A DNA stretch of 64,000 bases from Bacillota bacterium (GCA_019428945.1 JAHYJM010000004.1:2294-66293), one strand, 5' to 3'; positions 45,898 to 64,000 are shown, counted from the first letter of the stretch. The notes: a model not told the origin generated them from the letters alone. Numbers and translations are program-made.

Positions 45898-46776
45898 ATG
45901 GAAACATTAACTATTGAAGAAGCTCTCAAACGGGCTTCTTTTTATATACGTCAGGCCGGTATGGATCAACCGAGATTAGAGGCCGAATTGTTGCTTTCTT
46001 TTTGCATTGGGAAAGATCGACTTCGTTTAAGGCTGCTGCAGGATAAGACTCTGAATGATGAAAAGCTCACCTTTTATGAAGAAATAGTGAACAGAAGGTG
46101 TACCGGGGAACCTCTAGCTTATATAACCGGAGAAAAATACTTTTTTGGCCGTTCTTTTTCTGTAAATAAGAATGTATTAATTCCCCGTCCGGAAACTGAA
46201 AAGATTATTGAAATTACTATTAGCCGCTTTCGGATTGAAGGGTATAAAAAGAGTTCAAAATTCAAATGTCTTGATCTTGGCACCGGTAGTGGAGTTCTCG
46301 CTGTTACCCTGGCTCTCGAGTTCCCCCAGGGATTGTTTTGGGCGGTCGACATTTCAAAGGAAGCACTTGAAACCGCTCGCTGCAATGCAAGAAGATTAAA
46401 TGTAGTCGACAGAATTCGTTTTCTGCAGAGCAACTATTTCGATGCTTTGCAGGGAGAAAAAAATGTGAAATTTGATCTTATCGTCTCTAACCCTCCCTAT
46501 ATTGATCAGAAAGCTATGAACAACTTGCCTGCTGATGTAAAAAACTTTGAGCCGGAAATTGCCTTAAGTGGCGGGAAAGAAGGACTTGATGGTTACCGCA
46601 CTATCATAGCCGGGCTGCCGGACCACATAAGTAAACCCGGTTTGCTGTTGCTGGAAATAGGATCAAACCAGTGGGAAGCAGTTGAGACAATTTGTAGTCA
46701 GGCGAGAATATTTAGATCTATTGCCTGTCATAATGATCTTGCCGGTCTTCCCAGAGTTGTCGAGGGTGTTGTTTAG
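45898..46776 (+). CDS. prmC: Release factor glutamine methyltransferase
   Basis: GEPLAYI, LIPRPETE, DLGTGSG, SNPPY. Confidence 0.96.
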   Translation: METLTIEEALKRASFYIRQAGMDQPRLEAELLLSFCIGKDRLRLRLLQDKTLNDEKLTFYEEIVNRRCTGEPLAYITGEKYFFGRSFSVNKNVLIPRPETEKIIEITISRFRIEGYKKSSKFKCLDLGTGSGVLAVTLALEFPQGLFWAVDISKEALETARCNARRLNVVDRIRFLQSNYFDALQGEKNVKFDLIVSNPPYIDQKAMNNLPADVKNFEPEIALSGGKEGLDGYRTIIAGLPDHISKPGLLLLEIGSNQWEAVETICSQARIFRSIACHNDLAGLPRVVEGVV

Positions 46777-47192
46777 TTTAAGCCTTTGCCGGTTGAGGTG
46801 ATTGTCAGTTTGCCGTGTTTAACCCCTTTGACGCCAATAAGTCTCCCGGCAAGTTCTTTCGCTTCAACTGCAGGACCTTTGATAACCATTACTTCAAGAC
46901 AGTGATCATGTTCCAGGTGAACATGCATAACCGAAATAATCATATCATGATGATCGTGCTGAAGTTCCAACAATAGATCGCTTAGGCCTTTAACATGGTG
47001 GTTATAAATAATTGTTATAGTTCCGGCGACTTCTTCCTCGTCCCGGGACCAGTCGAGCTCTACCAGTTGGTTTCTGATCAAGTCTCTGATAGCTTCAGAA
47101 CGATTAGGATAACCGCGCTTAACAATTTCCTGGTCAAGCCTGGCAAGTAGTTCTTTTTCCATTGATATGCCGAAGCGGATTAAACCGGGCAT
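46773..47192 (-). CDS. nikR: Nickel-responsive regulator NikR
   Basis: RHH RFGIS...NRSEAIRDLIR; QHDHHD...HVHLEHDHCLEV Ni ligands. Confidence 0.95.
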   Translation of the reverse strand: MPGLIRFGISMEKELLARLDQEIVKRGYPNRSEAIRDLIRNQLVELDWSRDEEEVAGTITIIYNHHVKGLSDLLLELQHDHHDMIISVMHVHLEHDHCLEVMVIKGPAVEAKELAGRLIGVKGVKHGKLTITSTGKGLN

Positions 47193-47374: not shown

Positions 47375-48976
47375 TTGTTCTGGACCATTGTTTTTACCAC
47401 CCTTGGCGGGATGGGCCTTTTTTTATTCGGAATTCAAATTATGGCTTCCGGTATGCAAAAAGCAGCCGGTGACCGGTTCCGTAAAATTCTTGAAATGCTA
47501 ACTAATAATCCAATTCTTGGTGTTATCACAGGAATTGTTGTTACCATCCTGGTACAGAGCAGCAGCACTTCCACGGTAATGGTTGTTGGTTTCGCCAATG
47601 CAGGACTGATGAACCTTTCCCAGGCGATAAGCGTTATAATCGGAGCAAATATTGGGACGACTGTGACAGCGCAGATTGTCTCTTTTAAAATCGGCGTTAT
47701 TGCCCTGCCTACAATAGGGATTGGTTCACTCTTAAACTTTTTTGGCAAGCGTAGATTCCACCGGTATCTTGGGCAGACAATTTTGGGATTTGGGCTTCTC
47801 TTCCTTGGCATGACAACAATGTCGGAAGGGATGAGTCCGCTCCGTGAATTCGAAGCTTTCCATCGCCTGCTGGCTCAATTCAGTGTATATCCGGTGCTGG
47901 GTATACTCTGCGGAGCTTTATTTACAGCTCTGGTTCAAAGCAGCAGTGCCTCAACCGGTGTAATTATAGCCCTGACGATGCAGGATTTGATCCCTTTTGA
48001 ATCTGCAGTTCCGCTAATATTGGGTACAAACATAGGAACCTGCATAACGGCCATCCTGGCCAGTATAGGCGCCAATGTGGCGGCGCGACGGGCGGCAACT
48101 GCACACGTGCTATTTAATGTTATCGGAGTAACGCTAGCCCTGATCCTGCTTGGACCTTTCACGGAAATAATGATGGAAACAGCAAGTACTGTCCCCCGCC
48201 AGGTTGCAAATACACATACAATCTTCAATATTTTTAATACCATAATATTTTTGGTCTTTCTTAAATTCTTTTCCCGCCTTGTCTGCCGGATTATCCCTGG
48301 TGAAGATGAGAAAATTGAATTCGGGCCGAAATACTTAGATCACCGAATTTTAAAAACTCCACCTGCAGCAATAGGAGGGGTAAAAAAAGAAGTATTGAGG
48401 ATGGCAGGTATTGCCCGGGAAATGTTAGATGAATCGGTGCAGGTATTTTTAACAAATGATCTTAAGAAGGTTAAACATATTGAACAGATGGAAGAGCTGG
48501 TCGATGGCCTCGAGAAAGAGATCAATATTTATCTGGCAGAATTGTCGCAGCACTCCATGTCTCAAGAACAGTCTAAAATGGTAGCCAACCTGATGTCGGC
48601 GGCTAACGACCTTGAGCGTATCGGCGATCATGCGGAAAATATTATGCAGCTTGGCGAAGCTAAAACTGAAGACAGGCTTCCTTTTTCACAGGCAGCGCTT
48701 GAAGAAATAACAGAATTTTACGGCAAAGTTGAAGCCATGCTGGAAAAAGCGGTAAAAGCATTTGAGACGAATGATCATGAGCTTGCGAACCAGGTTGTTC
48801 TGGAAGATGATTATGTTGATGACCAGGAAAAATTACTGCGCAAAATGCACATAGATAGGATCAATACCAAGAAATGTTACCCTGCTGCCGGCGTGATTTA
48901 CCTTGATCTGCTGAGCAATCTAGAGCGTGTCGGGGATCATGCAAACAATATCGCCGATCTGGTTCTTACAGAGTAA
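47375..48976 (+). CDS. Na/Pi cotransporter with PhoU-like C-terminal domains
   Basis: Two VQSSS repeats, GANIGTT/GTNIGTC; DLERIGDHA and NLERVGDHA. Confidence 0.93.
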   Translation: MFWTIVFTTLGGMGLFLFGIQIMASGMQKAAGDRFRKILEMLTNNPILGVITGIVVTILVQSSSTSTVMVVGFANAGLMNLSQAISVIIGANIGTTVTAQIVSFKIGVIALPTIGIGSLLNFFGKRRFHRYLGQTILGFGLLFLGMTTMSEGMSPLREFEAFHRLLAQFSVYPVLGILCGALFTALVQSSSASTGVIIALTMQDLIPFESAVPLILGTNIGTCITAILASIGANVAARRAATAHVLFNVIGVTLALILLGPFTEIMMETASTVPRQVANTHTIFNIFNTIIFLVFLKFFSRLVCRIIPGEDEKIEFGPKYLDHRILKTPPAAIGGVKKEVLRMAGIAREMLDESVQVFLTNDLKKVKHIEQMEELVDGLEKEINIYLAELSQHSMSQEQSKMVANLMSAANDLERIGDHAENIMQLGEAKTEDRLPFSQAALEEITEFYGKVEAMLEKAVKAFETNDHELANQVVLEDDYVDDQEKLLRKMHIDRINTKKCYPAAGVIYLDLLSNLERVGDHANNIADLVLTE

Positions 48977-49010
48977 AGCCAAACGAAAAAGAATTAACAG
49001 AGGAGCTTTT

Positions 49011-50033
49011 ATGACGAGTACATTTAAGCGTGTTAACGGTACTCTATTACTGGACAACAGTTATCCTGCCTTAGCCAGGGCAGTATCGATTATTCGCCGT
49101 GGCGGCCTAGTTGCGTTTCCCACAGAAACTGTATATGGACTCGGCGCTTCAGCCACTGACAGCAACGCAGTAAATAATATATTTCTGGCAAAGGGACGCC
49201 CTTCTGATAATCCACTGATAGTGCATATCTCATCTATTAACCAGTTGACAAATATTGCCCGGGATATACCTGAAACAGCTTTCCTGCTTGCTGAAAAATT
49301 TTGGCCGGGAGCGCTGAGCATTGTTCTCACCAGGTCAGAGATCATTCCTCCTGAGGTAAGTGCAGGGTTGCGAACTGTTGCAGTAAGAATGCCTGATCAT
49401 AAGGTTGCGCTTGACCTGATAAGAATGTCGGGAGTTCCGATAGCTGCTCCGAGCGCAAACCGATCGGGCAGGCCGAGCCCGACCAGTTATCGTCATGTAC
49501 TGGAGGATCTGGCCGGGCGCATAGATGCGGTGATCAAAGATGATGATTGTTCAATCGGCGTTGAATCTACGGTAATTGATCTTTCCGGACCAGTTCCGGT
49601 AATACTCAGACCCGGCGGTGTAAGTCGTGAAGAGCTGGAAAGTGTTCTAAAACTCAACGTTAAAGTGTCCGCTCCCCTTTTCAGAGAAGGGATCCCAAGT
49701 TCACCGGGCATGAAATACCGGCATTATTCTCCGAAAGCGCCCCTGATCCTTGTTACAGGTGATGAAACCAGGCGTATGCATTTCGCAGAGAAAATCGCTG
49801 ATTGTTACAGAAGAAAAGGACAAAGGGTTGGAATTTTAAATACTTTTTGCGAGAGCGGCAGACCCGATCTTAACAGATTAAGGATAATAGCATCGCGACT
49901 TTACCGTGAGTTGCGTATATTGGATCAACAAAATGTTGATATCATTATTGTTCAGGCAACCAGCAGCGGAGGAATTGGGCTGGCTGTGATGAATCGTCTT
50001 CGAAAGGCGGCTGCACGGATCATCAAAGTCTGA
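49011..50033 (+). CDS. sua5: L-threonylcarbamoyladenylate synthase Sua5/YwlC
   Basis: FPTETVYGLG, KGRPSDNPLIVH, APSANRSGRPSP, SPGMKYRHY, NRLRKAA; SD before ATG 49011. Confidence 0.95.
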   Translation: MTSTFKRVNGTLLLDNSYPALARAVSIIRRGGLVAFPTETVYGLGASATDSNAVNNIFLAKGRPSDNPLIVHISSINQLTNIARDIPETAFLLAEKFWPGALSIVLTRSEIIPPEVSAGLRTVAVRMPDHKVALDLIRMSGVPIAAPSANRSGRPSPTSYRHVLEDLAGRIDAVIKDDDCSIGVESTVIDLSGPVPVILRPGGVSREELESVLKLNVKVSAPLFREGIPSSPGMKYRHYSPKAPLILVTGDETRRMHFAEKIADCYRRKGQRVGILNTFCESGRPDLNRLRIIASRLYRELRILDQQNVDIIIVQATSSGGIGLAVMNRLRKAAARIIKV

Positions 50034-50124
50034 CACGACAGTACAAAGGATTTCTCTTGATTAGTAATGGTCAGCCGGAATCTGAATCAAACGCTGCAGT
50101 TAAGTTTGAAAAGGAGATTCAAAA

Positions 50125-50595
50125 TTGCTTAAAATACTTTTTGTGTGCACCGGTAATACCTGTCGCAGTCCGATGGCGGAAGCTTTGTTAAAGAACATGC
50201 TGTCTGGAGAAAAACTGCGATATGAAATTGAAGTCTTATCTGCGGGGCTTTCATCATTTCCGGGTGAGAAAGTATCGCACGAAGTGATTAAACTGTTACA
50301 GAATGAAGGTGTTGGAAACATTCAGGATCGGCGTTCTGTAATGCTTGATCGACTAATGGTTGATGAAGCTGATCTGATCTTTGTGATGACCGGTGACCAT
50401 CTCAGAAAGCTCACTGCGCTGTTTCCTTTTACAAAGGGAAAAGCTTATAAATTAACCGATTATGCTGAGTGCTTCGGAGGGGCCGACATTGATGATCCTA
50501 TCGGTCAGGACGAAGAAATATATCGCAAAGTGTTAGAGGATATCCGAGTCTGTTTAAAGAATTTAATTTCTAAATTAGAGCTAAGAGGGGGATAA
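50125..50595 (+). CDS. Low-molecular-weight protein Arg/Tyr phosphatase (YwlE-like)
   Basis: CTGNTCRSPMAE, DDPIG. Confidence 0.92.
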   Translation: MLKILFVCTGNTCRSPMAEALLKNMLSGEKLRYEIEVLSAGLSSFPGEKVSHEVIKLLQNEGVGNIQDRRSVMLDRLMVDEADLIFVMTGDHLRKLTALFPFTKGKAYKLTDYAECFGGADIDDPIGQDEEIYRKVLEDIRVCLKNLISKLELRGG

Positions 50596-50597
50596 AT

Positions 50598-51050
50598 ATG
50601 AAGATAGCTATCGGCAGTGATCACGCCGGTTACCGGTTAAAAGATCAGGTAGTCGAATATCTGAAGGCCTCCAATCATGAATTAAATGATTATGGTGTAT
50701 TTTCCGAGGAAAGTGCTGATTATCCCGATCTTGCATCGGCTGTAGCCGGTTTTGTACAAAGAGAGGAATTGTCTTTCGGCATTTTGATTTGTGGCACAGG
50801 AATTGGCATGTCTATTGCTGCTAACAAATACAAAGGGATCAGGGCAGCTCTCTGTGCCGAGCCATATTCTGCCCGCTGTGCACGACAACATAATGATGCA
50901 AATGTGCTTACACTGGGTTCACGAGTCATTGGACCAGGTCTGGCGATTGATATCGTATGCACATTTCTTGGTACTGAATTTGAAGGGGGACGTCATTCCA
51001 GGCGAATTGAAAAGATAAGCCTGGCTGAAAAACTGATGAACAGAAAATAA
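50598..51050 (+). CDS. rpiB: Ribose 5-phosphate isomerase B
   Basis: GSDHAG, CGTGIG, HNDANVL, FEGGRH. Confidence 0.96.
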   Translation: MKIAIGSDHAGYRLKDQVVEYLKASNHELNDYGVFSEESADYPDLASAVAGFVQREELSFGILICGTGIGMSIAANKYKGIRAALCAEPYSARCARQHNDANVLTLGSRVIGPGLAIDIVCTFLGTEFEGGRHSRRIEKISLAEKLMNRK

Positions 51051-51143
51051 TGAATCAAGGCTACAAGAAGGGCCTGGCATGGCAGTAATAACTATGAATA
51101 ATTATCCTGCCGGAGTAATGCAGATGGAGTTGAACTTATTAAT

Positions 51144-52403
51144 ATGGAAAGACTAGAAGCAATCCTTTCGACGGCACCTCTTCAGGAAATAGATCCTGAA
51201 ATAGCTTTCACATTAGATAATGAGCGAAAACGGCAGCAGGAAAACCTGATCATGATTGCATCTGAGAATCTTGTCAGCAGAGCTGTATTAGAAGCCCAGG
51301 GTTCAGTTTTAACCAACAAGTATGCTGAAGGTTACCCAGGTGCAAGGTATTATGGCGGTTGCTACTTTGTCGATCAGGCTGAAGAACTGGCGTATAAAAG
51401 AGCTGTTGAGCTTTTTAAAGCAGAACATGTCAATGTTCAGCCGCATTCAGGTACTTCTGCAAATATGGCGGTTTATCTTGCCATGCTAAAGCCCGGTGAC
51501 CGCATTCTTGGTATGGATCTCAGTCATGGCGGGCATCTTACCCACGGAAGCAAAGTAAATATTTCCGGCCGTTATTATGAGGCATTCAGCTATGGAGTTG
51601 ATCGCAAAACCAGTTTCATTGACCTTGATCAGGTCAGAGAAAAGGCACTCAGCGTAAAACCAAAATTAATAATAGCAGGCGCCAGCTCCTATCCACGGCA
51701 GATAGATTATGAAGGATTCAGATCAATTGCTGATGAAGCAGGCGCGCTTTACATGGTAGATATGGCACATACTGCCGGCCTGATAGCCGCCGGGGTTCAC
51801 CCTAACCCCGTTGAGGTGGCAGATATAGTTACCGCAACCACCCATAAGACTTTTCGCGGTCCCAGGGGTGGAATTATTTTCTGTAAATCAGCATATGCGT
51901 CAGCAATAGACAAAGCAGTCTTCCCCGGATTACAGGGTGGTCCGCTCATGCACATCATAGCGGCAAAGGCAGTTGCTTTTAAAGAGGCGCTTACTCCTGA
52001 GTTTGTCAGCTACCAGAAAACAGTGTTGGCCAATGCCCGTGCCCTTGCAAAAAGCCTTGTAGAGAGCAGTTTCGATCTGGTGACCGGTGGTACAGACACT
52101 CACCTTATTCTGGTTGATCTTCGGAGAAAAGGTATCTCCGGCAGAGATGCGGAAAAACTGCTGGAAGATGTTCAGTTAACTGTGAATAAAAATGTGATAC
52201 CTTTTGATCCGAAAGGCGCAAATGATCCCAGCGGGATCAGGCTGGGTACTCCAACCCTGACTTCCCGCGGTATGAAACCGGAGCAGATGGCAGAAGTAGC
52301 AATGCTTATTAATAAAGCGATTGAAAGTCGCAATGATCCTGAAGCCCTGGCAGATATTCGGAAAAGCGTTGGCAGGCTTTGCCGGGAATTTCCTGCCTAT
52401 TAA
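51144..52403 (+). CDS. glyA: Serine hydroxymethyltransferase
   Basis: [33 protein letters not shown]. Confidence 0.98.
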
Positions 52404-52429
52404 TAATAAAAAGATAGGAGATGGTTCGC

Positions 52430-53059
52430 ATGGAACAAGTAAATGTTGTCGATCATCCGCTTGTGGTTCACAAGTTGACGCAATGCCGTCGGAGAGAGAC
52501 AGAAACCTGGCAGTTCAGGGGGCTGGTTGAAGAGATTACGGCAATGCTGCTTTATGAAGCTGTCAGAGATATTGAAACCGAGGAAAAAGATATTGTTACT
52601 CCGGTGACAGCTGCCAAAGGAAAGTTTATTAAAGATTCAGAGCCCGTTTTTATTGCTGTATTAAGGGCAGGTTTAGGTATGGTGCCCGGTGCGTTACGCC
52701 TGTTTCCTTATGCAAGAGCGGGACATATAGGATTATACCGTGATCATGATACTCATGTTCCAGTTGAATATTACTGTAACCTTCCTCCGAATATCAGTGA
52801 ACTTGATTGCTTCTTGCTAGAACCGATGCTCGCAACGGGTGGCTCTGCCACACACGCTATATCTGTATTGAAAAAAGCCGGCGCAAAAAAAATAAAGCTG
52901 TTAAGCTTGATTGCGGCCCCGGAAGGCATTAAAACAATCATTTCGGAACATCCGGATATTAAAATCTACCTCGCTTCGTTGGATGAAAAATTAAATGAGA
53001 ATGCCTACATTGTTCCGGGTCTTGGTGATGCCGGCGACCGTCTTTTTGGTACAGCTTAA
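52430..53059 (+). CDS. upp: Uracil phosphoribosyltransferase
   Basis: [29 protein letters not shown]. Confidence 0.97.
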
Positions 53060-53523
53060 TGCATGAGGATTTAACCGGTATTGATCGTCCTGACTGGGAT
53101 CATTATTTTATGGAAATTGCTACAGTTGTTGCAAAGCGGTCAACCTGCCTTAGGAGGAAGGTGGGCGCGCTTCTAGTTCAAAACAAGAGGATTCTTTCCA
53201 CAGGCTACAACGGCGCTCCCGGTGGATTGAGTCACTGTGCCCAGGTTGGCTGTATCAGGGAGCAGTTGAAAGTTCCTTCGGGAGAGCGACATGAGTTGTG
53301 CAGGGGACTCCATGCTGAGCAGAATGCAATAATCCAGGCTGCGGTTCACGGTGTAGCTATCGATAATGCTATTCTTTACTGTACTCACTATCCCTGTGCT
53401 GTCTGTGCCAAGATGCTCGTTAATGCCGGAATTAGATCACTGGTGCTTGCTGCCAATTATCCCGATGATTTGGCGAAAGAGATTTTTGCGGAAGCTGGAA
53501 TTAACGTCAGGTTTATAGTATAA
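53059..53523 (+). CDS. dCMP deaminase (ComEB family)
   Basis: [24 protein letters not shown]. Confidence 0.93.
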
Positions 53524-53789
53524 TATTTCGCGTGCCGTGCTTTTAGTTTGTATAAATATTTGCATATTTCAACGATTAGCCTGCACTCTGATTTTCGCTA
53601 ATATATAACTGAACATTAATAACCGCATCAGCTTAATAATGTTAATGACTACCTAAATACTACGCCGGCATATTCAAAAGGACCTTTTAAGCCATTATTT
53701 GATGAAGGTTATTTATTTGACTTAGAATATAGCTTGCTTAATTTTATTGTTGCAGCATAAATCAGTATCAGTTTAAAGGATGGTGGGGT

Positions 53790-54392
53790 ATGTCGATTCA
53801 GGTAAAAGAACTTATTGACAAGATTAAAAACGAGGGTGTCCTTGCGGCCGAGACTGAGGCTGAAAAAATTATTTCCGAAGCTGAGGAAAAGGCAGCCCAA
53901 CTAATTAAGGATGCTCAGGCCAAAGCGGAATTGCATAAGGCCCAGGTCGAACAGGAGTTGGAACAGCAAAAAGCTGCCGGTATTGCTGCTATTAAGCAGG
54001 CCGCCCGCGATGTTTTAATCGGTTTGGACAAGCAGCTTATAAAACGAATGGACGCGGTTATCATTGAATCAGTAGATACAGCACTGACAACTTCTTTAAC
54101 AGAGAAAATTATTGTAGAGATGGTCCATGCCTGGGCTGAAAAGGGCGAAGAGGGCATCAGGGTAGTTCTCTCTTCAAAAGATGCCGAAACGTTGAAAGAG
54201 TCTTTAAAGGGAAAATTGTCGCAGAGCCTCAAGGATGGAGTGGAAATAATCCCCTCTGCTAAGTTTGATAAAGGTTTTCGTATCGGTGGCAGTAGTGGGG
54301 TTTTATACGATTTTTCCAAGGAAAGTATTGCGGAGGTTCTGTCTCAGGCTCTCTCCCCCGACCTTGCAGCAGCTTTAAAAGAGTCAATCTAA
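53790..54392 (+). CDS. ntpE: V/A-type ATPase subunit E
   Basis: ELIDKIKNEGV...AEKIISEA coiled coil; GFRIG...YDFSKESIAE; first gene of the cluster. Confidence 0.85.
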   Translation: MSIQVKELIDKIKNEGVLAAETEAEKIISEAEEKAAQLIKDAQAKAELHKAQVEQELEQQKAAGIAAIKQAARDVLIGLDKQLIKRMDAVIIESVDTALTTSLTEKIIVEMVHAWAEKGEEGIRVVLSSKDAETLKESLKGKLSQSLKDGVEIIPSAKFDKGFRIGGSSGVLYDFSKESIAEVLSQALSPDLAAALKESI

Positions 54393-54411
54393 GGACTTGG
54401 AGGAAAGTGTC

Positions 54412-54939
54412 TTGAAAAACCATTATTACACGTTAGCGGCCCTTGGAACGATCAGGCTGGAAGAAAAAATACCCGTTACTGAAGAATATTTTTTGCAGTT
54501 TGCTGAAGATACAATTGATGCGAAAAGCTATCAGGTTTTGTTAAAAAGTCGCTGGGGCTTAACGGAGCCAACCGGCTTTTCTTTTGCTGACCGGATTCTC
54601 TCCTGGGAAAAGGAACTGCGTTTGGAATTGGCTAAAGCACGTGCTTTGAAGCTGCCATTTGACGCTTCTCCAGATCTAGAGGAATCAAAAGGTAGCTACA
54701 ACTTGCTTGAACAGGTGCGAGCTGTCATGGCTTTAGATTCACCTTTGGATGCGGAGCGATATTTGGACCAATTGCGATGGTGCTATTTAGAAGAGACGGG
54801 TGCTCACCACTATTTTGACCTTGAGGCTTTGGTCGTATATTATTTAAAACTTCAGCTTGCTTTGCGTCAGGAAAAGTTTAAAGTGGAACTTGGCAGAGAT
54901 TCTTTTGAAAAAGAATACGCTGCTTTAGCTGACAGTTAA
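54412..54939 (+). CDS. DUF2764 / V-type ATPase subunit C-like protein
   Basis: YYTLAALG, SWEKELRLELAKAR, AERYLDQLRW, HYFDLEALVVYYLKLQ; slot between E and A. Confidence 0.75.
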   Translation: MKNHYYTLAALGTIRLEEKIPVTEEYFLQFAEDTIDAKSYQVLLKSRWGLTEPTGFSFADRILSWEKELRLELAKARALKLPFDASPDLEESKGSYNLLEQVRAVMALDSPLDAERYLDQLRWCYLEETGAHHYFDLEALVVYYLKLQLALRQEKFKVELGRDSFEKEYAALADS

Positions 54940-54970
54940 TATACTGATTACCTTATAGAAATGGGTGAGG

Positions 54971-56740
54971 ATGATTAACAAAGTAATTGGAGTTAGTGGA
55001 AATATGGTATCTGTGGAATATGCCGGCGAAGCCACGATGAACGAAGTCTGCTACATTAATACCGGTGATAAGAAATTAAAATCAGAGGTCATCCGTATTA
55101 AGGGCAATGTGGCCGACCTCCAGGTTTTTGAAATGACTTCAGGTATAAGTGTGGGGGAAACTGTTGAATTCAGCGGTGAATTACTCAGTGTGCAGTTAGG
55201 CCCGGGTTTATTGGGGCAAATATATGATGGATTGCAGAACCCCTTACCTGAACTGGCACAGCAGTGTGGCTTCTTTTTAGAACGCGGTGTCTATATGGCA
55301 GCTCTCGATGATAAAAAAGAGTGGGAATTTAGCCCGACGGTGGAGGCCGGTGCCAGGTTGGAATCCGGCGAACAGATCGGCTTTGTCAAAGAGGGTCTTT
55401 TTAATCACTGGATCATGGTCCCCTTTCAGCTTGATGGTGTTCTAACAATCGAGAGCATTGCTGCGGCAGGAACATACACCATTAATGATGTGCTGGCGGA
55501 AGTTAAAGATGAAAAAGGCGACATTCACCAATTAACAATGGTATTTAACTGGCCCGTAAAAAGAGCGATTAAAAACTATGCAGAGCGCTTGAAGCCGGAA
55601 GAAACTCTGATCACAAAACTAAGAATTATTGACACTTTCATCCCCGTGGCCAAGGGCGGTACTTACTGCATTCCCGGTCCTTTTGGCGCCGGTAAAACGG
55701 TTCTGCAGCAAATAACTTCCAGGTATGCTGATGCGGATATTATTATTATCGCTGCCTGTGGTGAGCGTGCCGGCGAGGTAGTGGAGACCCTGAAAGAGTT
55801 TCCCGAGCTGATCGACCCGAAAACCGGCCGTTCTTTAATGGAAAGAACCATCATAATCTGCAACACCTCTTCCATGCCGGTTGCTGCTCGTGAAGCTTCA
55901 GTTTATACGGCGGTAACTATGGCCGAATATTACCGGCAGATGGGCCTGAATGTTCTGATGCTGGCTGATTCAACCTCGAGGTGGGCCCAGGCTATGCGTG
56001 AAATGTCCGGTCGTCTGGAAGAAATTCCAGGGGAGGAAGCATTTCCTGCCTACCTGGAATCCCTGATTGCCGCCTTTTATGAGCGGGCCGGGATAGTTCG
56101 CCTCAAAAGTGGCGATATCGGCTCTGTGACTATCGGCGGCACTGTTTCTCCGGCCGGTGGTAACTTTGAAGAGCCGGTAACCCAGGCCACTTTGAAGGTA
56201 GTAGGCGCATTTCACGGTTTGTCACAGCAGCGGGCTGATGCCCGTAAATATCCTGCTATCCACCCCCTGGAATCCTGGTCAAAATATAAGGGGATCATCG
56301 ATCAAAAGAAAACAGAATATGGTCGGGCCATTCTCTTTAAAGGTGACGAGGTTGGCCAAATGATGAAAGTAGTTGGTGAAGAGGGTACGTCCCTTGATGA
56401 TTATATCATTTACCTAAAATCGGAGTTGCTGGATTACGTGTATATTCAACAGAACTCCTTTGATCCTGTAGATGCTGCTGTTGAGCCTGAGCGCCAACTA
56501 CATATCTACGATATTCTAATCGGTATTCTGACGGCTAAGTTAGATTTTGCCGGCAAAGAGGAAGCCCGCTCCTGGTTTAACCGGGTGCGGCAGAACTTCC
56601 TGGACTATAATGGTAAAAAATGGAAGAGTGACGAGTTTAATAATTTGGAGAAAACCATCTCCGAACTGTTGGACGATAAGAAAATTGGGGTCGAAGCAGA
56701 TGCCGAAAGTCTTTGGGCAGGCGAGTCAAGGAGGGGCTAG
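54971..56740 (+). CDS. ntpA: V/A-type ATPase subunit A
   Basis: [47 protein letters not shown]. Confidence 0.96.
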
Positions 56741-56742
56741 TA

Positions 56743-58041
56743 TTGCAAAAAGTATACAGTAAAATCGAATCGATCTCCGGTAACGTTATTACAGTAAAGG
56801 CAACGGGTGTGCGCTACAAGGAGCTTGCCGTTGTGGGAAGCAGGTACGGCTCATCAATGGCGGAAGTAATCCGTCTTAAAGGCGATGAAGTTGCCCTGCA
56901 GGTTTTTAATGGTGCACGGGGAGTATCCACCGGGGATGAAGTCCGGTTCATGGGTGAGCCGATGAAAGTTTCTTTTTCCCCGAACCTATTAGGGCGTATT
57001 TTTGATGGATCAGGACGGCCGCGGGACGGAGGACCTGAACTTGCCGATACAATGGTTGAAATTGGTGGCCCTTCCGTTAACCCCGCCAAGCGGATTATTC
57101 CCCGCAACATGGTCCGGACAGGGATTCCCATGATTGATGTTTTTAATTCGCTGGTAGAGTCGCAGAAACTGCCTATTTTTTCAGTTTCCGGAGAGCCTTA
57201 TAATGAACTTTTAGCGCGGATTGCCCTACAGGCTGAGGTTGATATTATTATCCTCGGTGGGATGGGTCTAAAATACGATGATTATCTTTTCTTCAAGGAT
57301 ACTCTGGAAAAGGGTGGCGTGATGTCAAGGACAGTCTTTTTTGTCCATACCGCGTCCGACCCCGTCGTTGAATCCCTGCTGGTTCCCGATATTGCCCTGG
57401 CGGTGGCGGAAAACTTTGCCATCCAGGACAAACGGGTCCTGGTTCTGCTGACCGATATGACCAACTTCGCCGATGCCATGAAGGAAATCGCCATTACGAT
57501 GGAACAGGTTCCCTCCAACCGTGGCTATCCCGGAGACCTTTACACCCAGTTAGCCTCACGGTATGAAAAGGCGGTTGATTTTGAAGGGTCAGGCTCAATT
57601 ACTATCCTTGGCGTAACCACCATGCCCGGGGATGACGTTACCCACCCTGTGCCCGATAACACGGGATACATCACTGAAGGACAGTTCTATCTTCGTAATG
57701 GCCGGATCGAGCCGTTCGGATCTCTGTCCAGGTTAAAGCAGCTGGTAAATGGTGATACCCGTGAGGATCACCGTGCCATCATGGACGGCATGATTAAACT
57801 GTATGCTGCCTATAAGGAGTCCCTGGAAAAGAAATCAATGGGTTTTAAAATGTCAGACTGGGATGAGAAGCTTTTGACTTATGGTCAGTTGTTTGAAAAG
57901 GAAATGATGGATCTTTCCGTCAACATTCCCCTGGAGGCCGCCCTGGATAAAGGATGGGAAATTTTAGGCGGCTGCTTTGCGCCGGAGGAAACAGGATTAA
58001 AGTCGGAGCTGATCGAAAAATACTGTCGTACTAAGGTGTAG
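56743..58041 (+). CDS. ntpB: V/A-type ATPase subunit B
   Basis: [49 protein letters not shown]; TTG after GGAGG. Confidence 0.96.
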
Positions 58042-58044
58042 ATC

Positions 58045-58641
58045 ATGGCAAAAATCAAGTATACGAAAAATGAATTAAAAAAGCAAAAGGACCAGCTTAA
58101 AAGGTTCAGGCGCTATTTACCCACGCTGATTCTGAAGAAGCAGCTGCTGCAGATGGAGATAAGACAGGTCGAGATGCAAATAAACGAAAAGAACCAGCAG
58201 CGGGAAAGAATAAATGCCGAACTGATGAGCTGGGTTCATGTTTTTGGCGAAAATTTGAATATTGCCGAGCTGGTTAAGGTAAAAGAGACGGATCTGGAAA
58301 CCACTAACATAGCCGGTGTTGATATTCCAGTGTTTAATAAGGTCATTTATGAGAATATGCCCTATGACTTAATGTTCTATCCTTTATGGGTGGATGCAGG
58401 TGTTCAAAAGTTGAAAGAGCTTTTTTCTGCAGATATGGAACTTACTATTCTTAAAAAACAGGCTGAACTACTGGGTGAAGAATTAAGAATCACTTCTCAG
58501 CGGGTCAACTTGTTCGAAAAGGTAAAGATTCCTGACACCACGGAAAATATCAGGCGCATTAATATTTTCCTCGGCGATCAACAGACGGCGGCGGTTGTGC
58601 GGGGCAAGTTATCGAAAAATAAACTGGTGAGGGAGGCTTAA
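58045..58641 (+). CDS. ntpD: V/A-type ATPase subunit D
   Basis: TKNELKKQK...YLPTLILKK; TSQRVNLFEKVKIP. Confidence 0.93.
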   Translation: MAKIKYTKNELKKQKDQLKRFRRYLPTLILKKQLLQMEIRQVEMQINEKNQQRERINAELMSWVHVFGENLNIAELVKVKETDLETTNIAGVDIPVFNKVIYENMPYDLMFYPLWVDAGVQKLKELFSADMELTILKKQAELLGEELRITSQRVNLFEKVKIPDTTENIRRINIFLGDQQTAAVVRGKLSKNKLVREA

Positions 58642-58644
58642 GCG

Positions 58645-60528
58645 ATGATCGCAGAGATGAAAAATGTATCGATGGTTGTCCAGACCAAAGATAAAGAGTT
58701 AACTCTGGATGCACTGGCCGAACTTGGCCTCGTCCACCTTGAAGACTTTCAGTATTCTTCACCGGAAGTTGATGATGCTCTTGCCAGGAAAAACAGGGCA
58801 GAAGCTGCCTATAATTTTTTGATCTCACTCAAAAACAAGAATGACCTGACTTCCCCTTCTGTAGAAGTTTCAGAGGCCATAGAGGAAGTACTGAAGATAA
58901 AGGATGATCTTCAGGCTGCAATGGAACAGGAAGCTGCTTTAGAAAAACAGATTGCCGGTTTGGAAAAATGGGGGGATTTTAATCCCGCAGACTTCAACTT
59001 TCTTGCGAACAAGGGTTACTACCTGAAAATATATACCTTTCCTGGTGGCAAAAGCGACGATATCAACGATCTCGAGGGTTACGTAGTAATTTTAGAGGAA
59101 AACAAAAAAGAGTTGATATTTGCTCACCTTACCCGTGAACCTGTAAAACTGGACGATCATGAAGAGTTTAAGCTCCCCCAGCAAAGTCTCAGCGCTATGC
59201 GGGCAGAAAAAAATGAATTAGAAGCGAAGATTGCAGAGCTTACAGGCAAAGTACAGCAATATCATGGTCTTGGGCCTGCTCTACATGCTCACCTGGAAGA
59301 ACTGGACTCTAACCTGCAATATTGGATTGCCAAAGCAAATACCGTAGATGAAGGAAATCTCACCGCTATAGTCGGATATCTTCCTGCTGACGAAGCAGAG
59401 GCCGTCCAGAATTGGGCCCGACAGAATTCTGTCGCTTTAGCCATAACGGAGCCGGAAACATTAGAATCCGTCCCAACGCTAATCCGTAATCCCAGGTGGT
59501 TGCAGATTGTTGAACCTGTATTCAAATTTATGGGTACAGTCCCCGGCTATAAAGAACTGGATATAAGCCTGGTATTTCTTTGTTTTTTCACTATATTTTT
59601 TGCCATGATTATCGGGGATGCCGCCTACGGAAGCATTTTTTTCCTGGCAGGACTCGGTCTGGTAATTTACTATGGCAAATCTAAAAAAGAGAAACCTCCA
59701 CTGGCTGTGGTGCTTTTTACCATTCTTGGTTTGGCCACGGTTATATGGGGGAGCATGACCGGTTCCTGGTTTGGCAGTCCTGAACTGATCAAAGGTACTA
59801 TATTGGAAAAACTGGTAATTCGCCAGCTAACGGAGGGTTTCAGTTTCCATACGCCCGCCGGTGAATTTTATAAGGTTTTGAGCGGCCAGGATGTTATCAT
59901 GCTGTTGTGTTTCACCATCGCGATAGTTCACCTTACTATTGCGCAGGTTTGGAATTTTTTACGTGCCCTGGCTCACCGCTCTCTGCAGGCCCTGGGTCAG
60001 GTAGGATGGATGCTAATTAACTTTGGTCTTTTCTACCTGGTGCTCGATATGGTGGCGAGATTCAACCTCGACCAGGCGCTTGGTGCGGGAGGTCTCGTTA
60101 CAGACATGAGTTTAAATATTATTATTATTGGGTTAGCGTTGATCGTTCTTTTTGGCTCACAAAGACCAAGGGGTAACTTTTTTAAAGGACTGCTTGGCGG
60201 TCTTGGAGATCTACCGAGCACAGTTCTGGGATCTATATCGGCCTTCGGTGACATCATATCTTATGTGCGGCTTTTTGCCATGGGTCTGGCGGGAGCCGAA
60301 ATAGCGAGAGCATTCAATAACATGGCCGGAGACCTTTTATCCGGCAATACGTTCATATTTGGGGTGCTGATCCTGTTAATCGGGCATGCCTTTAACTTAG
60401 TTCTCTGCAGCCTGGGAGTGCTGGTGCACGGAATTCGTTTGAAAATGCTGGAGTTCTCGGGTCGGCTGGGTATACAGTGGTCTGGCCAGGAATATAATCC
60501 ATTCAGATTTCGTAGAGATTTTATTTAA
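58645..60528 (+). CDS. ntpI: V/A-type ATPase subunit I (a)
   Basis: WGDF, VPTL, PGYKELD, GDAAYG, SYVRLFAMGLA (essential Arg), HGIRLKMLEF. Confidence 0.93.
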   Translation: MIAEMKNVSMVVQTKDKELTLDALAELGLVHLEDFQYSSPEVDDALARKNRAEAAYNFLISLKNKNDLTSPSVEVSEAIEEVLKIKDDLQAAMEQEAALEKQIAGLEKWGDFNPADFNFLANKGYYLKIYTFPGGKSDDINDLEGYVVILEENKKELIFAHLTREPVKLDDHEEFKLPQQSLSAMRAEKNELEAKIAELTGKVQQYHGLGPALHAHLEELDSNLQYWIAKANTVDEGNLTAIVGYLPADEAEAVQNWARQNSVALAITEPETLESVPTLIRNPRWLQIVEPVFKFMGTVPGYKELDISLVFLCFFTIFFAMIIGDAAYGSIFFLAGLGLVIYYGKSKKEKPPLAVVLFTILGLATVIWGSMTGSWFGSPELIKGTILEKLVIRQLTEGFSFHTPAGEFYKVLSGQDVIMLLCFTIAIVHLTIAQVWNFLRALAHRSLQALGQVGWMLINFGLFYLVLDMVARFNLDQALGAGGLVTDMSLNIIIIGLALIVLFGSQRPRGNFFKGLLGGLGDLPSTVLGSISAFGDIISYVRLFAMGLAGAEIARAFNNMAGDLLSGNTFIFGVLILLIGHAFNLVLCSLGVLVHGIRLKMLEFSGRLGIQWSGQEYNPFRFRRDFI

Positions 60529-60633
60529 CCGGTAACCATCTCTACAATATCTCGACGGTTAGGACTAGTATCTTTTATTGTATCGGGATAATATACCGAA
60601 ATAAACTGCATTATTGAAAAGGAGCCTGATAAA

Positions 60634-61080
60634 ATGGTTGAGTATGGATTAATGGGTATTGCTGCAGCGCTTGCTATCTCTGCTGTTGGATCTTCACTCG
60701 GTATTGGTGCGGCCGGGCAGGCTGTTATTGGAGCGTGGAAAAAAGCATTCATGCAGAATAAGCCTGCTTCGTTTATGTTGTTGGCTTTTACTGGCTTTCC
60801 GCTCTCCCAGACTTTTTATGGTTTAATTCTAATGAATACCATCGTAGCATCGGCACATCTCTTAGAGAGTGGTGTAATTCTGGGGATCGGTATTTTTGGT
60901 GGCCTTGCAATCGGCACATCAGCCTATTTCCAGGGCGTTGCCGGTGCCGGTGCAGTCGATGCTTTTGCAGAGACAGGCAAAGGGTTTACCAACTATGTTC
61001 TGGTGCTTGGCGTTATTGAATCCGTTGCTCTGCTGGCTATGGTGTTTCTGATGACGATGATCAACACCATAGCAGGGTAA
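60634..61080 (+). CDS. ntpK: V/A-type ATPase subunit K (c), four-TM proteolipid
   Basis: GSSLGIGAAG, PLSQTFYG, FQGVAGAGA, GVIESVAL. Confidence 0.93.
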   Translation: MVEYGLMGIAAALAISAVGSSLGIGAAGQAVIGAWKKAFMQNKPASFMLLAFTGFPLSQTFYGLILMNTIVASAHLLESGVILGIGIFGGLAIGTSAYFQGVAGAGAVDAFAETGKGFTNYVLVLGVIESVALLAMVFLMTMINTIAG

Positions 61081-61272
61081 TTTCTGCAGAAGTGCTCTGC
61101 TATCGGTCGGATTAATCATTTGAGGCTGTCTGCAAAAGTGTTTTGGTCAGCCCCTATAGTTATCAATTTTGTCACTAAATTAATGCTGTTTAAAACAAGC
61201 GGACGGGTAGCGCTTACGCTATTATGCCTCTACCCAGGGTATTCATTTTAAGGTGTGTGGAAGGAATATTTT

Positions 61273-62571
61273 ATGACTCAGGAATTGATTGTGCAGGGGG
61301 GTATACCCCTGCATGGCTCTGTCAGAATAAAAGGTTCAAAAAATGCAGGGTTACCCATAATCGCTGCCGCTTTGCTTATAGATGAACCAGTGGTTATAGA
61401 AGAAGTGCCAGATCTTCTCGATGTTCGTACAATGCTGTCTGTTATAGAATCTCTCGGGGCTGTAGTTGACTACGATTCGAATGAAGAAAGAATTACTATA
61501 AATCCGAAAAATCTTCAGTCGGCTGAGCCACCCGTAGATCACATGCAGAAAATGCGTGCATCATTTCTGGTTTTAGGTCCCCTGCTGGCCCGTTACGGAT
61601 ATGCCCGACTTTCCCTTCCCGGCGGTTGTGCGATTGGCACGCGGCCCGTAGATCTTCACCTCAAAGGCTTTGAAGCAATGGGTGTTGAATTTTCCTACAC
61701 CAGCGGTTTGGTTGAAGGTAAAACCGGTTTCTTAAAGGGTGCAGATGTTTATCTTGATTATCCGAGCGTAGGCGCAACAGAAAATCTGATCATGGCGGCA
61801 GTGCTGGCAAAGGGATCCACTACAATTGAGAACGCCGCTTCAGAACCTGAAATTGTAGACTTAGCCGGCTTTTTAAACAGCGCCGGAGCCAAAATCAGCG
61901 GCGCTGGAACCAAAACAATTCGCATAAATGGTGTTAAGCAGCTTGGTGGAACCAAATATGCAGTGATACCGGATCGCATTGAGGCGGGAACATTTCTGCT
62001 AAGTGCAGCAGTTACCGGTGGTGAAATTATCGTTAACAATGTTCTTGCCGCTCACCTCAAACCGCTGCTGGCTAAAATGAGAGAGACGGGAGTAGAAATA
62101 GAAGAGACTGATCTTTCAGCGATCAGGGTTAGAGGGAGCCTTGACAAAAAGTGTGTTGACTTAAAAACACAGCCTTACCCGGGTTTTCCAACCGACCTTC
62201 AGCCCCAGTTTATGAGTTTGCTTGCAGCCTCCCGGGGAACAGGACTGGTGACTGAAACTGTATTTGAAAACCGCTTCAGACACATTGGCGGTTTGCTGCG
62301 CATGGGAGCAGACATACAGGTGGAGGGAAGCAGGGCAGTTGTTCAGGGAGTCAAAAAGCTTAGCGGCGCCCCCGTTGAAGCTTCCGATCTGAGAGGTGCT
62401 GCGGCGCTTGTTCTGGCAGCGCTGTCTGCCGGGGGAACTTCACGCATAACCGGACTTGAACATCTTTGGCGCGGTTACAGCGGGTTTGAAGATAGGCTCA
62501 GAAGTCTCGGCGCCAATTTAAAAGTGGAAACTAATATTAATTTAACGTGGGAAAGAGCAGCAGGAGAATAA
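61273..62571 (+). CDS. murA: UDP-N-acetylglucosamine 1-carboxyvinyltransferase
   Basis: GSKNAGLP, MRASFLV, GGCAIGTRPVD, YPGFPTDLQ, DLRGAA. Confidence 0.95.
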   Translation: MTQELIVQGGIPLHGSVRIKGSKNAGLPIIAAALLIDEPVVIEEVPDLLDVRTMLSVIESLGAVVDYDSNEERITINPKNLQSAEPPVDHMQKMRASFLVLGPLLARYGYARLSLPGGCAIGTRPVDLHLKGFEAMGVEFSYTSGLVEGKTGFLKGADVYLDYPSVGATENLIMAAVLAKGSTTIENAASEPEIVDLAGFLNSAGAKISGAGTKTIRINGVKQLGGTKYAVIPDRIEAGTFLLSAAVTGGEIIVNNVLAAHLKPLLAKMRETGVEIEETDLSAIRVRGSLDKKCVDLKTQPYPGFPTDLQPQFMSLLAASRGTGLVTETVFENRFRHIGGLLRMGADIQVEGSRAVVQGVKKLSGAPVEASDLRGAAALVLAALSAGGTSRITGLEHLWRGYSGFEDRLRSLGANLKVETNINLTWERAAGE

Positions 62572-62590
62572 TATATTCCGGGGTGGTTAA

Positions 62591-63655
62591 ATGTATACTT
62601 ATCCCGGCAACATCCATATACACAGCACACACTCTGACGGCAGCGGAACTATTGCGAAGATTGCGACAGCGGCTGCTGCAGCCGGTTTAAGTTTTGTTGT
62701 TATCAGTGATCATGAAACCCTGGCGGGGCTTCCCGAAGAAGCTATCTGTCAGGGTGTTCTTGTATTGGTTGGAGCTGAAATCAACAAGGATAAGAATCAT
62801 TACCTGGCGCTTGGTATTGATAAACCGGTTCAGTTTGATGATGAACATCCCCAGAATGTAATTGATCGCGTCTGCCAGGCCGGGGGAATTGGATTTATAG
62901 CTCATCCTTTTGATCGAGGTTCCCTCTATATTGAAAAAGGTAAAGCTTTCCCCTGGAAAAACTGGCCGGTTTTCGGTTTTAACGGAATTGAAATCTGGAA
63001 TTTTTCCTCACACTGGCGAGGCCTGCATCCGTCTCTTTTCAGAACTTTGTATTGGTTTTTCTTCAATCGCAGGGGAGCAATGAAAGGTCCGCCCCGCAGA
63101 CTTCTAAGATTGTGGGATTGCTATAACTCAAACGGCCACAGAATTGTCGCCATAGGCAGCAGCGACGCCCATGCTTATCGATACAGGTTGGCGTTGTGTT
63201 CGATCATAATATTCACCTATCGTTATACATTTACAACAATCAATACATACATAGTGATGAAGGAAAAACTGAGCGGCAATTTTACGGAAGCAAAGGCTCA
63301 GGTTATAGATGCCCTGAGCAGGGGGTGCTGTTTTACTTCTTTTGAAACACTTGGCAAGGCAAAAGAATTTTCATTTACCGCGTTAGCGGGTGACCAGCTG
63401 ATTTTAATGGGTGGTGAAATCCGTATGGAACGAAGGATTAAGCTGCAGATTAAGGCGCCGGGCAAACGATCTTTAATCAGGTTAATATGTAGTGGCGAGC
63501 TGTTGCTTGAAACAAAACAACCGGAAATAATTTATGAAGCTTACAGGCCGGGGGTGTACAGGGTGGAAGTGTATTATCGTCCACACTGCGGAAGAGCGCG
63601 GCCATGGATATTTTCCAACCCGATTTACATTCTTCCCTTTCAATATTCCCGATAG
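62591..63655 (+). CDS. PHP-domain metallohydrolase (CehA/McbA-like) with C-terminal beta domain
   Basis: NIHIHSTHSDG, SDH, GAEI, AHPF, GIEIWN, GSSDAH; C-terminal GVYRVEVY...WIFSNPI. Confidence 0.8.
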   Translation: MYTYPGNIHIHSTHSDGSGTIAKIATAAAAAGLSFVVISDHETLAGLPEEAICQGVLVLVGAEINKDKNHYLALGIDKPVQFDDEHPQNVIDRVCQAGGIGFIAHPFDRGSLYIEKGKAFPWKNWPVFGFNGIEIWNFSSHWRGLHPSLFRTLYWFFFNRRGAMKGPPRRLLRLWDCYNSNGHRIVAIGSSDAHAYRYRLALCSIIIFTYRYTFTTINTYIVMKEKLSGNFTEAKAQVIDALSRGCCFTSFETLGKAKEFSFTALAGDQLILMGGEIRMERRIKLQIKAPGKRSLIRLICSGELLLETKQPEIIYEAYRPGVYRVEVYYRPHCGRARPWIFSNPIYILPFQYSR

Positions 63656-63736
63656 TTGCATGGTGCTTGTTCATGATATATTATTTATAAAGATATAACT
63701 TGATACAAATGTGCAAATATACAAGGAGGTATCTTC

Positions 63737-64000
63737 ATGTTAAAAGTAGGCATCAATGGTTTTGGCAGAATTGGCAGGATGGCTATGCGTGTATCCATGA
63801 ATCAAAATAAGGTTAAAGTAGTTGCTGTAAATGACCTTGCCGATAACTCCACATTGGCTCATTTACTGAAGTATGATTCAGTTTATGGTGTTTTAGATCT
63901 TGATATTAAAGCAGACGATCAGGGGTTTGATATCAATGGCGAAAGAATTGCGGTTTTTTCTGAGAGAGAGCCGGCTAAAATTCCCTGGAAAGATTATGAG
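63737..64000 (+). CDS. gap: Glyceraldehyde-3-phosphate dehydrogenase type I, N-terminal part (not in the ORF track)
   Basis: Manual translation MLKVGINGFGRIGR...VVAVNDL...AHLLKYDSVYG; SD AAGGAGG. Confidence 0.96.
   Translation, partial: MLKVGINGFGRIGRMAMRVSMNQNKVKVVAVNDLADNSTLAHLLKYDSVYGVLDLDIKADDQGFDINGERIAVFSEREPAKIPWKDYE

Follow-up and report, generated by a model that had tools for sequence, protein, structure and literature searches.

Which rotary ATPase occupies the atp slot of a Firmicute chromosome, and what did it replace there? This question is raised by a stretch of 64,000 nucleotides from a Bacillota bacterium (GCA_019428945.1, JAHYJM010000004.1:2294-66293; hereafter, the window), in which an operon of seven V-type ATPase genes lies between upp and a dCMP deaminase gene on the left and murA on the right. 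The original prediction, drawn from the sequence alone, held that this operon is of the Spirochaete/Chlamydia type, that it was acquired horizontally, and that it displaced the F-type synthase in place. We found that the region encodes a complete seven-subunit V/A-type rotary ATPase of the Spirochaete/Chlamydia/Bacteroides family. Taking all the evidence together, we consider it probable that this is a Na+-type enzyme which came from a Spirochaetota-like donor, and that its operon repeatedly replaced a nine-gene V-type, rather than an F-type, predecessor.

The operon encodes a seven-subunit ATPase of a known family

Seven intact + strand open reading frames (ORFs), in the order E-DUF2764-A-B-D-I-K, span positions 53790 to 61080 (Table 1). 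This order, as first read, was confirmed with Pfam and NCBIfam models. Subunits A (PRK04192, a subfamily model; 779 bits versus a cut-off of 470), B (PRK02118; 760 versus 431), D (PRK02195; 242 versus 189) and K (PRK06649; 186 versus 127) all exceeded the cut-off, as did the DUF2764 protein (PF10962; 39.3 bits versus a gathering score of 24.1), whose match covers only the C-terminal third of the model. For the two remaining subunits the matching equivalogs ranked first at scores below the curated cut-off: PRK01558 for subunit E (158 versus 241), which had no Pfam match, and PRK05771.2-2 for subunit I (467 versus 799). The assembled enzyme would comprise an A3B3 head, a central stalk of D, a peripheral stalk of E, the stator I, a ring of K and the family-specific DUF2764 protein, and would do without C/d, F and G. 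Indeed, no gene for C(d), F or G was detected in the operon with Pfam (including PF01992 and PF01990), or in the window by tblastn with the C, F and G subunits of the nine-gene type. Profile comparison of DUF2764 with each nine-gene-type subunit revealed no similarity (hhalign probability below 4%), and its AlphaFold2 model, built from a shallow alignment, was unusable (mean predicted local distance difference test score of 50). A sequence search of the PDB found no solved structure of the seven-gene family; the solved structures nearest to subunit A were those of the Pyrococcus A-type and E. hirae V-type A subunits.

Both the gene order and the subunit set are those of the Spirochaete/Chlamydia/Bacteroides type, as had been proposed. 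The same order is present in the Spirochaete loci L010-L081, and the DUF2764 gene always lies between E and A in the Firmicute and Spirochaete loci. More widely, the seven-gene operon of Spirochaetota, Chlamydiota and Bacteroidota (Treponema, Borrelia, Chlamydia trachomatis, Porphyromonas and Bacteroides fragilis PTOS_002482-88) shares with that of the window the order, the subunits, DUF2764, the short B subunit and the top NCBIfam equivalogs, and the Na+-site residues of the window's K subunit are as reported for B. fragilis. What differs is the host, here a Firmicute of the class Dethiobacteria, the location of the operon in the upp...murA slot, and the short DUF2764 protein (175 residues versus a 271-position Pfam model). 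In addition, 29 Spirochaete loci carry directly 5' of E a conserved ORF of about 132 codons without Pfam family (L011:8237-8632, L018:8203-8601 and L026:8325-8723, for example), which is absent from the window and from all other Firmicute carriers; its product may be an additional subunit, or may regulate the Spirochaete operon.

The nine-gene V/A-ATPase of Enterococcus hirae, Thermus thermophilus and Dethiobacter alkaliphilus has homologous A, B, D, E, I and K subunits with the same Na+-site and stator-arginine residues. It differs in its gene order, in the additional C(d), F and G subunits, in the absence of DUF2764, and in a B subunit that is about 28 residues longer (460 versus 432), which bears out the short B subunit noted at the outset. 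Identity of the window's proteins to this type amounts to about 42-43% for A and 36-37% for B, whereas B is 79-82% identical to its Spirochaete counterparts. Trees of A and of A+B+D place the window subunits with Spirochaetota, and keep them apart from the nine-gene type in 100 of 100 replicates. The F1Fo operon atpIBEFHAGDC of Bacillus and Clostridia is found at this chromosomal position too, with upp upstream of it and murA/spoIID downstream, and its product shares the general rotary mechanism; in contrast, alpha and beta are only 24-30% identical to A and B, and the stalk and stator subunits are wholly different.

The operon had also been put forward as a candidate for an undescribed system. 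This part of the prediction is not supported, as the seven-gene operon with DUF2764 is an already known family (bioRxiv 10.1101/2023.05.11.540287; PMC2359735). It was recognised as a divergent clade known from Treponema, Borrelia and Chlamydia genomes (PMC2359735), and the B. fragilis enzyme, whose K subunit has Na+-site residues, was highlighted as functionally uncharacterised (bioRxiv 10.1101/2023.05.11.540287). We found no literature report of a seven-gene enzyme in Firmicutes, or of V-type operons alternating at the atp slot. The enzyme is a further member of a known, biochemically uncharacterised family, and it is the history of the locus that is informative.

The predecessor in the slot was probably a nine-gene V-type operon

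Upp homologues led us to seven related loci (L082, L083, L166, L167, L168, L169 and L170) that have the same flanks as the window (prfA, prmC, nikR, Na/Pi, sua5, ywlE, rpiB, glyA, upp and the deaminase gene on the left; PHP or murA on the right) and lack the seven-gene operon. In all seven the slot holds a nine-gene operon, which begins with a small G-like ORF and continues with I, K, E, C, F, A, B and D, while an F-type operon was found in none. A GIKECFABD Na+ V-type ATP synthase has been reported from Dethiobacter alkaliphilus (PMC5609068). We then considered the slot across the phylum, by means of a metagenome scan with the Upp alignment. The 80 loci listed belong mostly to distant Firmicutes, so that this is a census of the slot rather than a dense sampling of sister taxa. 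Among the matches listed, (i) the seven-gene operon lies near upp in at least one locus (L085, a close relative), (ii) the nine-gene operon lies directly or shortly 3' of upp in at least 8 loci of unrelated Clostridia (L095, L100, L107, L112, L125, L139, L143 and L145), and (iii) F-type subunits lie 3' of upp in at least 7 loci (L090, L094, L098, L123, L152, L155 and L164), L123 being arranged as upp-(wecB)-atpIBEFHAGDC. The position downstream of upp is, overall, a conserved Firmicute rotary-ATPase slot that holds any of three operon types, and a V-type operon in the atp slot is not unusual. In this sense the window's operon does occupy the F1Fo atp locus. Among the census loci, six contigs of gut and bioreactor Clostridia (L095, L100, L112, L139, L143 and L145) have the nine-gene operon directly 3' of upp; V-type seems to have replaced F-type at this slot elsewhere in the phylum.

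The question is which operon was there before. According to the original prediction, the acquired operon directly displaced an F-type atp operon, and the V-type enzyme may be the organism's main ATP synthase; as weighed here, this course would leave it as the sole one. Such a course would agree with the slot being the classical atp slot and with the report of Na+ F1Fo synthases in two other Dethiobacteria (PMC10608574, PMC6295475), which places the F-type within the class. It would also agree with the absence of any F-type gene from the 64-kb window and from about 20 kb of each related locus. For the window, this absence was assessed by tblastn (E <= 10) with the complete, Pfam-verified F-type subunit set of L123, together with a nine-gene V-type set. 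The only matches were V-A, V-B, V-I, V-K and Rho (43.1-44.4 kb); no F-type a, b, c, delta, gamma or epsilon subunit was found, and neither the 266-bp nor the 192-bp junction matched any F-type or nine-gene-type subunit, confirming that no F-type remnant is visible in either junction. The 2-4 kb of extra DNA between the deaminase gene and E in L007 and L008, considered as a possible source of F-type remnants, contained membrane-protein genes only. Against direct displacement of an F-type operon stand all seven same-flank loci, with their nine-gene V operon, and the divergence of that operon, which tracks the divergence of the flanks as expected for a long-resident one. We therefore regard this course as quite unlikely. 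Since the seven same-flank relatives carry the nine-gene operon and none an F-type operon, the predecessor in Dethiobacteria was most likely the nine-gene Firmicute-type Na+ V-ATPase operon (G-I-K-E-C-F-A-B-D).

Two observations on the loci themselves may be added. The nine-gene carrier L169 (GCA_033549065.1, JAWSUE010000004.1), whose Upp is 80% identical to that of the window, is a metagenome-assembled genome (MAG) which, by its adjacent whole-genome shotgun prefix, probably comes from the same study as the window's assembly; both operon types may thus coexist in related populations of one habitat. In a subgroup of seven-gene carriers without upp and with rearranged context (L007:5043-7882, L008:6636-7676, L048:7096-8415 and 16723-17676), genes for membrane proteins (a large multi-pass protein, a major facilitator superfamily transporter) are inserted 5' of E, while 3' of K murA gives way to an oppositely oriented gene for a lactate/malate dehydrogenase; upstream, L048 also has genes for acetyl-CoA synthetase and two acetyl-CoA hydrolase/transferase-GNAT proteins.

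The seven-gene operon is related to those of Spirochaetota

The A subunits closest to that of the window (79-97% identical) are encoded in MAGs that bear the names Dethiobacteria, Syntrophomonadaceae or Bacillota and in many cases derive from soda-lake sediment. After this Firmicute clade, the next tier among the best 80 genome loci is made up of Spirochaetota at 67-73% identity, with the sole exception of a MAG labelled Candidatus Proendomicrobium, while full-length A representatives of Chlamydiia, Bacteroidota, Desulfobacterales and Acidobacteriota reach 44-52%. The A tree unites the Firmicute sequences in a single clade (100%) inside a star-like Spirochaetota radiation. A neighbour-joining tree of A+B+D (1,191 columns, rooted on nine-gene-type sequences, 100 replicates) recovered the Firmicute clade as monophyletic in 100/100 replicates, nested in Spirochaetota in 94/100 and excluded by Spirochaetota in 6/100; its sister was a single Spirochaete MAG, L031, in 70/100. 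In neither tree did the window's subunits nest in the native Firmicute nine-gene V clade. Moreover, GC content at third codon positions (GC3) was modestly but significantly higher in the seven operon genes than in the other 36 genes of the window (0.465 versus 0.385 +/- 0.040; P = 1.4e-4), overall GC being similar. The monophyly of the Firmicute clade, its position inside Spirochaetota and the raised GC3 of the operon together support a single old horizontal acquisition from a Spirochaetota-like donor, in keeping with the affinity and the horizontal origin first proposed. An ancestor within the class Dethiobacteria would have gained the operon once, and the operon would have landed between upp/dCMP deaminase and murA, i.e. 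in the Firmicute rotary-ATPase slot.

Several points weigh against this interpretation. The raised GC3 may reflect high expression instead of foreign origin, the trees are neighbour-joining trees on short concatenations, and the root of the A+B+D tree is the long branch to the nine-gene type, so that the nesting in Spirochaetota is possibly a rooting artefact. That same long branch, along with the six replicates in which Spirochaetota excluded the Firmicute sequences, would leave room for the reverse direction, with the operon native to the Firmicute lineage and passed from it to Spirochaetota. We hold this to be very improbable, as many families of Spirochaetota have this type of ATPase, most of them with no other rotary ATPase beside it, whereas the Firmicute carriers that we found all belong to a single subclade of one class, the relatives of which have other types; the placement of the Firmicute clade beside a single Spirochaete MAG in most replicates points the same way. 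As to the exceptional MAG, Candidatus Proendomicrobium guianensium from termite gut (L032, WQVR01000101.1), its A subunit nests among Treponema in the A tree, which represents either a further inter-phylum transfer or a binning error.

An assembly artefact was also considered. All sequences are metagenome assemblies, and Spirochaetes (Alkalispirochaeta and others) live in the same soda-lake habitat; a Spirochaete contig might have been fused to a Firmicute contig by chimeric assembly or mis-binning. However, independent assemblies from other studies (L004, L005, L009, L085 and L165) show these junctions again, at several levels of divergence and with Firmicute genes to the left and right, and for this reason a chimeric contig is very unlikely. 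The operon's A subunit is, besides, only 68-73% identical to any Spirochaete sequence, and the operon proteins co-diverge within the Firmicute clade. We attach a negligible probability to such an artefact, and retain acquisition from a Spirochaetota-like donor. In one of these assemblies (L165:8568-16587, a JGI contig) frameshifts break up the seven-gene operon and the deaminase gene into numerous short gene calls; an indel-prone assembly is the likely cause, given that a flank gene is affected too, with pseudogenisation as the alternative.

The two V-type operons alternate among related lineages

In order to follow both operon types along the host lineages, we used trees of concatenated flank proteins (at most nine linked genes) as a proxy for the host tree. 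Two groups, each with 100% bootstrap, contain carriers of either type: group Y comprises the window, L085 and L005 (seven-gene) with L083, L169 and L170 (nine-gene), and group X comprises L082, L166, L167 and L168 (nine-gene) with L009 and L165 (seven-gene). The third group (L007, L008 and L048) consists of the seven-gene carriers with rearranged context. Within group X, L009 is sister to the nine-gene carrier L168 (99-100% bootstrap), and within group Y, L169 and L170 are as close to the window as the seven-gene carriers L005 and L085. Carriers of both types in group X share on the left a sigma-factor/SpoIIR insertion between the NikR-like gene and the Na/Pi-PhoU gene, and both V types are followed, before murA, by an orphan ORF (L082:20049-20558, L165:16589-17140, L009:16334-17026) of 170-231 codons with no Pfam match, 36-45% identical between loci. 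The exchanged segment is, by this token, bounded by orthologous genes. In other Firmicutes the position of the orphan ORF is held by SpoIIT/YwmB. The seven-gene operon keeps to the same slot across lineages with flanks only 55-72% identical, and at least three to four switches are needed, whichever type was ancestral.

The two types differ in their divergence at equal flank distance. In group Y (flank identity 68-72%), I is 78-84% and E 83-90% identical among seven-gene carriers, versus 60-65% and 51-64%, respectively, among nine-gene carriers. Across the deep X-Y split, I and E of both types are at about 51-63%. The nine-gene identities thus track flank identity, while the lower divergence of the seven-gene type in group Y suggests, on sequence grounds, that it was this operon that spread laterally. 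After its acquisition it would have taken the place of the nine-gene operon in several related lineages, probably through recombination in the conserved flanks. Replacement via flanking homology is consistent with the absence of other signs of insertion: in scans of the window no tRNA or Rfam match was found, repeats around the operon were at chance level with no flanking direct repeats, and no mobile-element genes were found around the operon. The junction DNA of the two operon types has nothing in common beyond one 19-nt match of doubtful significance; in the left junction only the last 29 nt or so 5' of the E start are conserved among close relatives; a -35/-10-like site at 53699-53728 is weak and at chance level, the promoter and terminator scan having performed no better than on shuffled sequence. 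A gene-by-gene scan along the flanks showed no clear rise near the junction in identity to carriers of the same type. Displacement of a gene in situ by a xenologue is an established concept (Omelchenko et al. 2003, Genome Biol 4:R55, as cited in PMC1274311). Here, too, a non-orthologous functional equivalent would have replaced the resident operon between conserved flanks; the difference from the classical case is that a whole multi-subunit operon was exchanged, apparently several times among relatives.

We infer the direction and number of these replacements, as well as the recombination mechanism, under assumptions that may each fail. The comparison of I and E supposes similar evolutionary rates in the two enzyme families; the flank tree is a proxy, and the switch count would be wrong if flanks recombined along with operons; and parsimony alone cannot fix the ancestral V type, about four events being required either way. 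No genome with both V types was seen, although whole genomes were not searched. This last point bears on differential loss, according to which the ancestor carried both V-type operons (in tandem or separately) and each lineage kept one, with no lateral swaps within the class. For both types, divergence is comparable to the deepest host split (A+B 80-87%, with I and E as given above), and a monophyletic Firmicute seven-gene clade fits a single ancient gain. Yet among about 17 loci whose flanks could be read there is not one with both operons, whether in tandem or within 10 kb; both would have to be kept through successive splits and then lost in at least five independent events; and the far lower divergence of the seven-gene type at equal host distance in group Y is not predicted by vertical descent. 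Differential loss is accordingly an unlikely account, if less so than the alternatives discussed so far, and we favour repeated replacement.

The enzyme is most likely Na+-coupled

The translated subunit A has the P-loop GPFGAGKT. In subunit I, R542 within the motif GDIISYVRLF aligns with the stator arginine of E. hirae NtpI (R573) and T. thermophilus subunit I (R563). The K-subunit profile matches E. hirae NtpK (2BL2) at E = 2e-24, and NtpK residues T64, Q65, Y68, Q110 and E139, which form the Na+ site of that protein, align with S58, Q59, Y62, Q100 and E129; across both V types, these ion-site positions show either no change or conservative substitutions. The K subunit is predicted to be a four-helix proteolipid with a single Na+-type ion site. 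Given this site and the stator arginine, the enzyme is most likely Na+-coupled, in ATP synthesis or hydrolysis, and coupling to Na+ flow would suit a soda-lake anaerobe. On the other side of the balance, residue conservation is all that points to Na+, and the first residue of the site is Ser, not Thr. Furthermore, with a single ion site for every four helices the ion/ATP ratio is low, a feature often tied to pumping rather than to synthesis.

The direction in which the enzyme works, as synthase or as pump, is likewise something that we infer. The alternation of the seven-gene operon with the nine-gene D. alkaliphilus-type synthase in a single conserved slot suggests that the two enzymes are functionally equivalent, and the nine-gene type, which holds the slot in sister lineages, probably has the same cellular role. 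Alternatively, the enzyme could be an ATP-driven Na+ export pump that maintains ion and pH homeostasis where both pH and salinity are high; it would then work beside another rotary synthase with genes elsewhere, and would not be the main ATP synthase. The single ion site per four helices in K, as in the E. hirae Na+ pump, would fit such a role, as would the Na+ F1Fo synthases of related Dethiobacteria; in Bacteroides, moreover, an F-type synthase is present alongside the seven-gene enzyme, which is important under certain conditions (bioRxiv 10.1101/2023.05.11.540287). Arguing the other way, the operon sits in the one conserved ATPase slot, where it alternates with the operon of an enzyme that has been described as an ATP synthase, V-type is the only rotary ATPase in most Chlamydia and Spirochaetes (PMC2359735), and no second ATPase is visible in the DNA examined. 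We judge the pump to be a serious possibility, with about one chance in three of being right. More tentatively still, and with more doubt than belief, one may regard the Dethiobacteria upp...murA slot as an exchangeable cassette site, where two non-orthologous Na+ V-type ATPases, one of them Spirochaete-derived, are repeatedly swapped, possibly as a maintained polymorphism (in ion/ATP ratio, or in bias towards synthase or pump, among soda-lake anaerobes living near the thermodynamic limit), with the seven-subunit enzyme as sole ATP synthase of its carriers.

Many Spirochaetes and Chlamydiae have the seven-gene V-ATPase as their only rotary ATPase, and in Bacteroides it is a fitness factor. For this enzyme, of which we found no PDB structure, the Firmicute carriers offer tractable material for biochemistry and cryo-electron microscopy. 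In these free-living, non-pathogenic hosts, alternation with the well-understood nine-gene Na+ enzyme amounts to a natural equivalence experiment, which suggests that the minimal seven-subunit enzyme can do the job of the nine-gene one. The locus would also exemplify in situ displacement of a core bioenergetic machine as a whole operon, apparently repeated among relatives, and bears on the limits of ATPase type as a phylogenetic or physiological marker.

Gene inventory of the locus

The features of the locus are compiled in Table 1. The flanking genes originally named were confirmed on both sides: Na/Pi-PhoU, sua5, the low-molecular-weight phosphatase gene, rpiB, glyA, upp and the dCMP deaminase gene on the left, and murA followed by a PHP-domain gene on the right. 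Positions 48045-64000 of the window align with contig JAWSUH010000006.1 (L001; Dethiobacteria MAG GCA_033549225.1) with 32 substitutions and 0 gaps over 15,956 bp (99.8%). Subunits A, B, D, I and K are identical between the two, and murA and the PHP gene differ by about 5 amino-acid changes each. GenBank gene calls on this contig agree with the ORFs called in the window, and with the N-termini first quoted.

Table 1. Coordinates of the seven-gene ATPase operon, its junctions and the genes that bound the slot
Feature	Position	Strand	Remarks
upp (uracil phosphoribosyltransferase)	52430..53059	+	PF14681; conserved left marker of the rotary-ATPase slot
dCMP deaminase	53059..53523	+	PF00383; last left-flank gene, orthologues directly 5' of both V-operon types
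Left junction, presumed promoter region, 266 bp	53524..53789		No F-type or nine-gene-type match
Subunit E (peripheral stalk), 200 aa	53790..54392	+	NCBIfam PRK01558 top match, E = 1.5e-46; first operon gene in all relatives
DUF2764 protein, 175 aa, family-specific subunit	54412..54939	+	PF10962
Catalytic subunit A, 589 aa	54971..56740	+	PRK04192; Pfam ATP-synt_ab_N, ATP-synt_ab_Xtn, ATP-synt_ab, ATP-synt_VA_C
Non-catalytic subunit B, 432 aa (short form)	56743..58041	+	PRK02118 equivalog
Central-stalk subunit D, 198 aa	58045..58641	+	PF01813; PRK02195
Stator subunit I (a-subunit homologue), 627 aa	58645..60528	+	PF01496; PRK05771.2-2 top match
Proteolipid subunit K, 148 aa, four helices	60634..61080	+	PRK06649
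Right junction, 192 bp	61081..61272		No F-type or nine-gene-type match; partly conserved with L004, L005 and L085
murA, right slot marker	61273..62571	+	PF00275; murA or PHP gene 3' of the ATPase operon in carriers of both types

Elsewhere in the window, a second gene of the murA/EPSP-synthase family lies at 37681-38970, 3' of walR-walK-yycH-yycI and 5' of htrA, and the presence of dnaB, walRK, rho and prfA resembles a typical origin-proximal Firmicute region. A NikR-like regulator gene (46773-47192, - strand), named by synteny with Pfam-annotated orthologues in L082, L083 and L165, is divergent from a Na/Pi cotransporter-PhoU fusion gene (47375-48976), and this pair is kept in all related loci.

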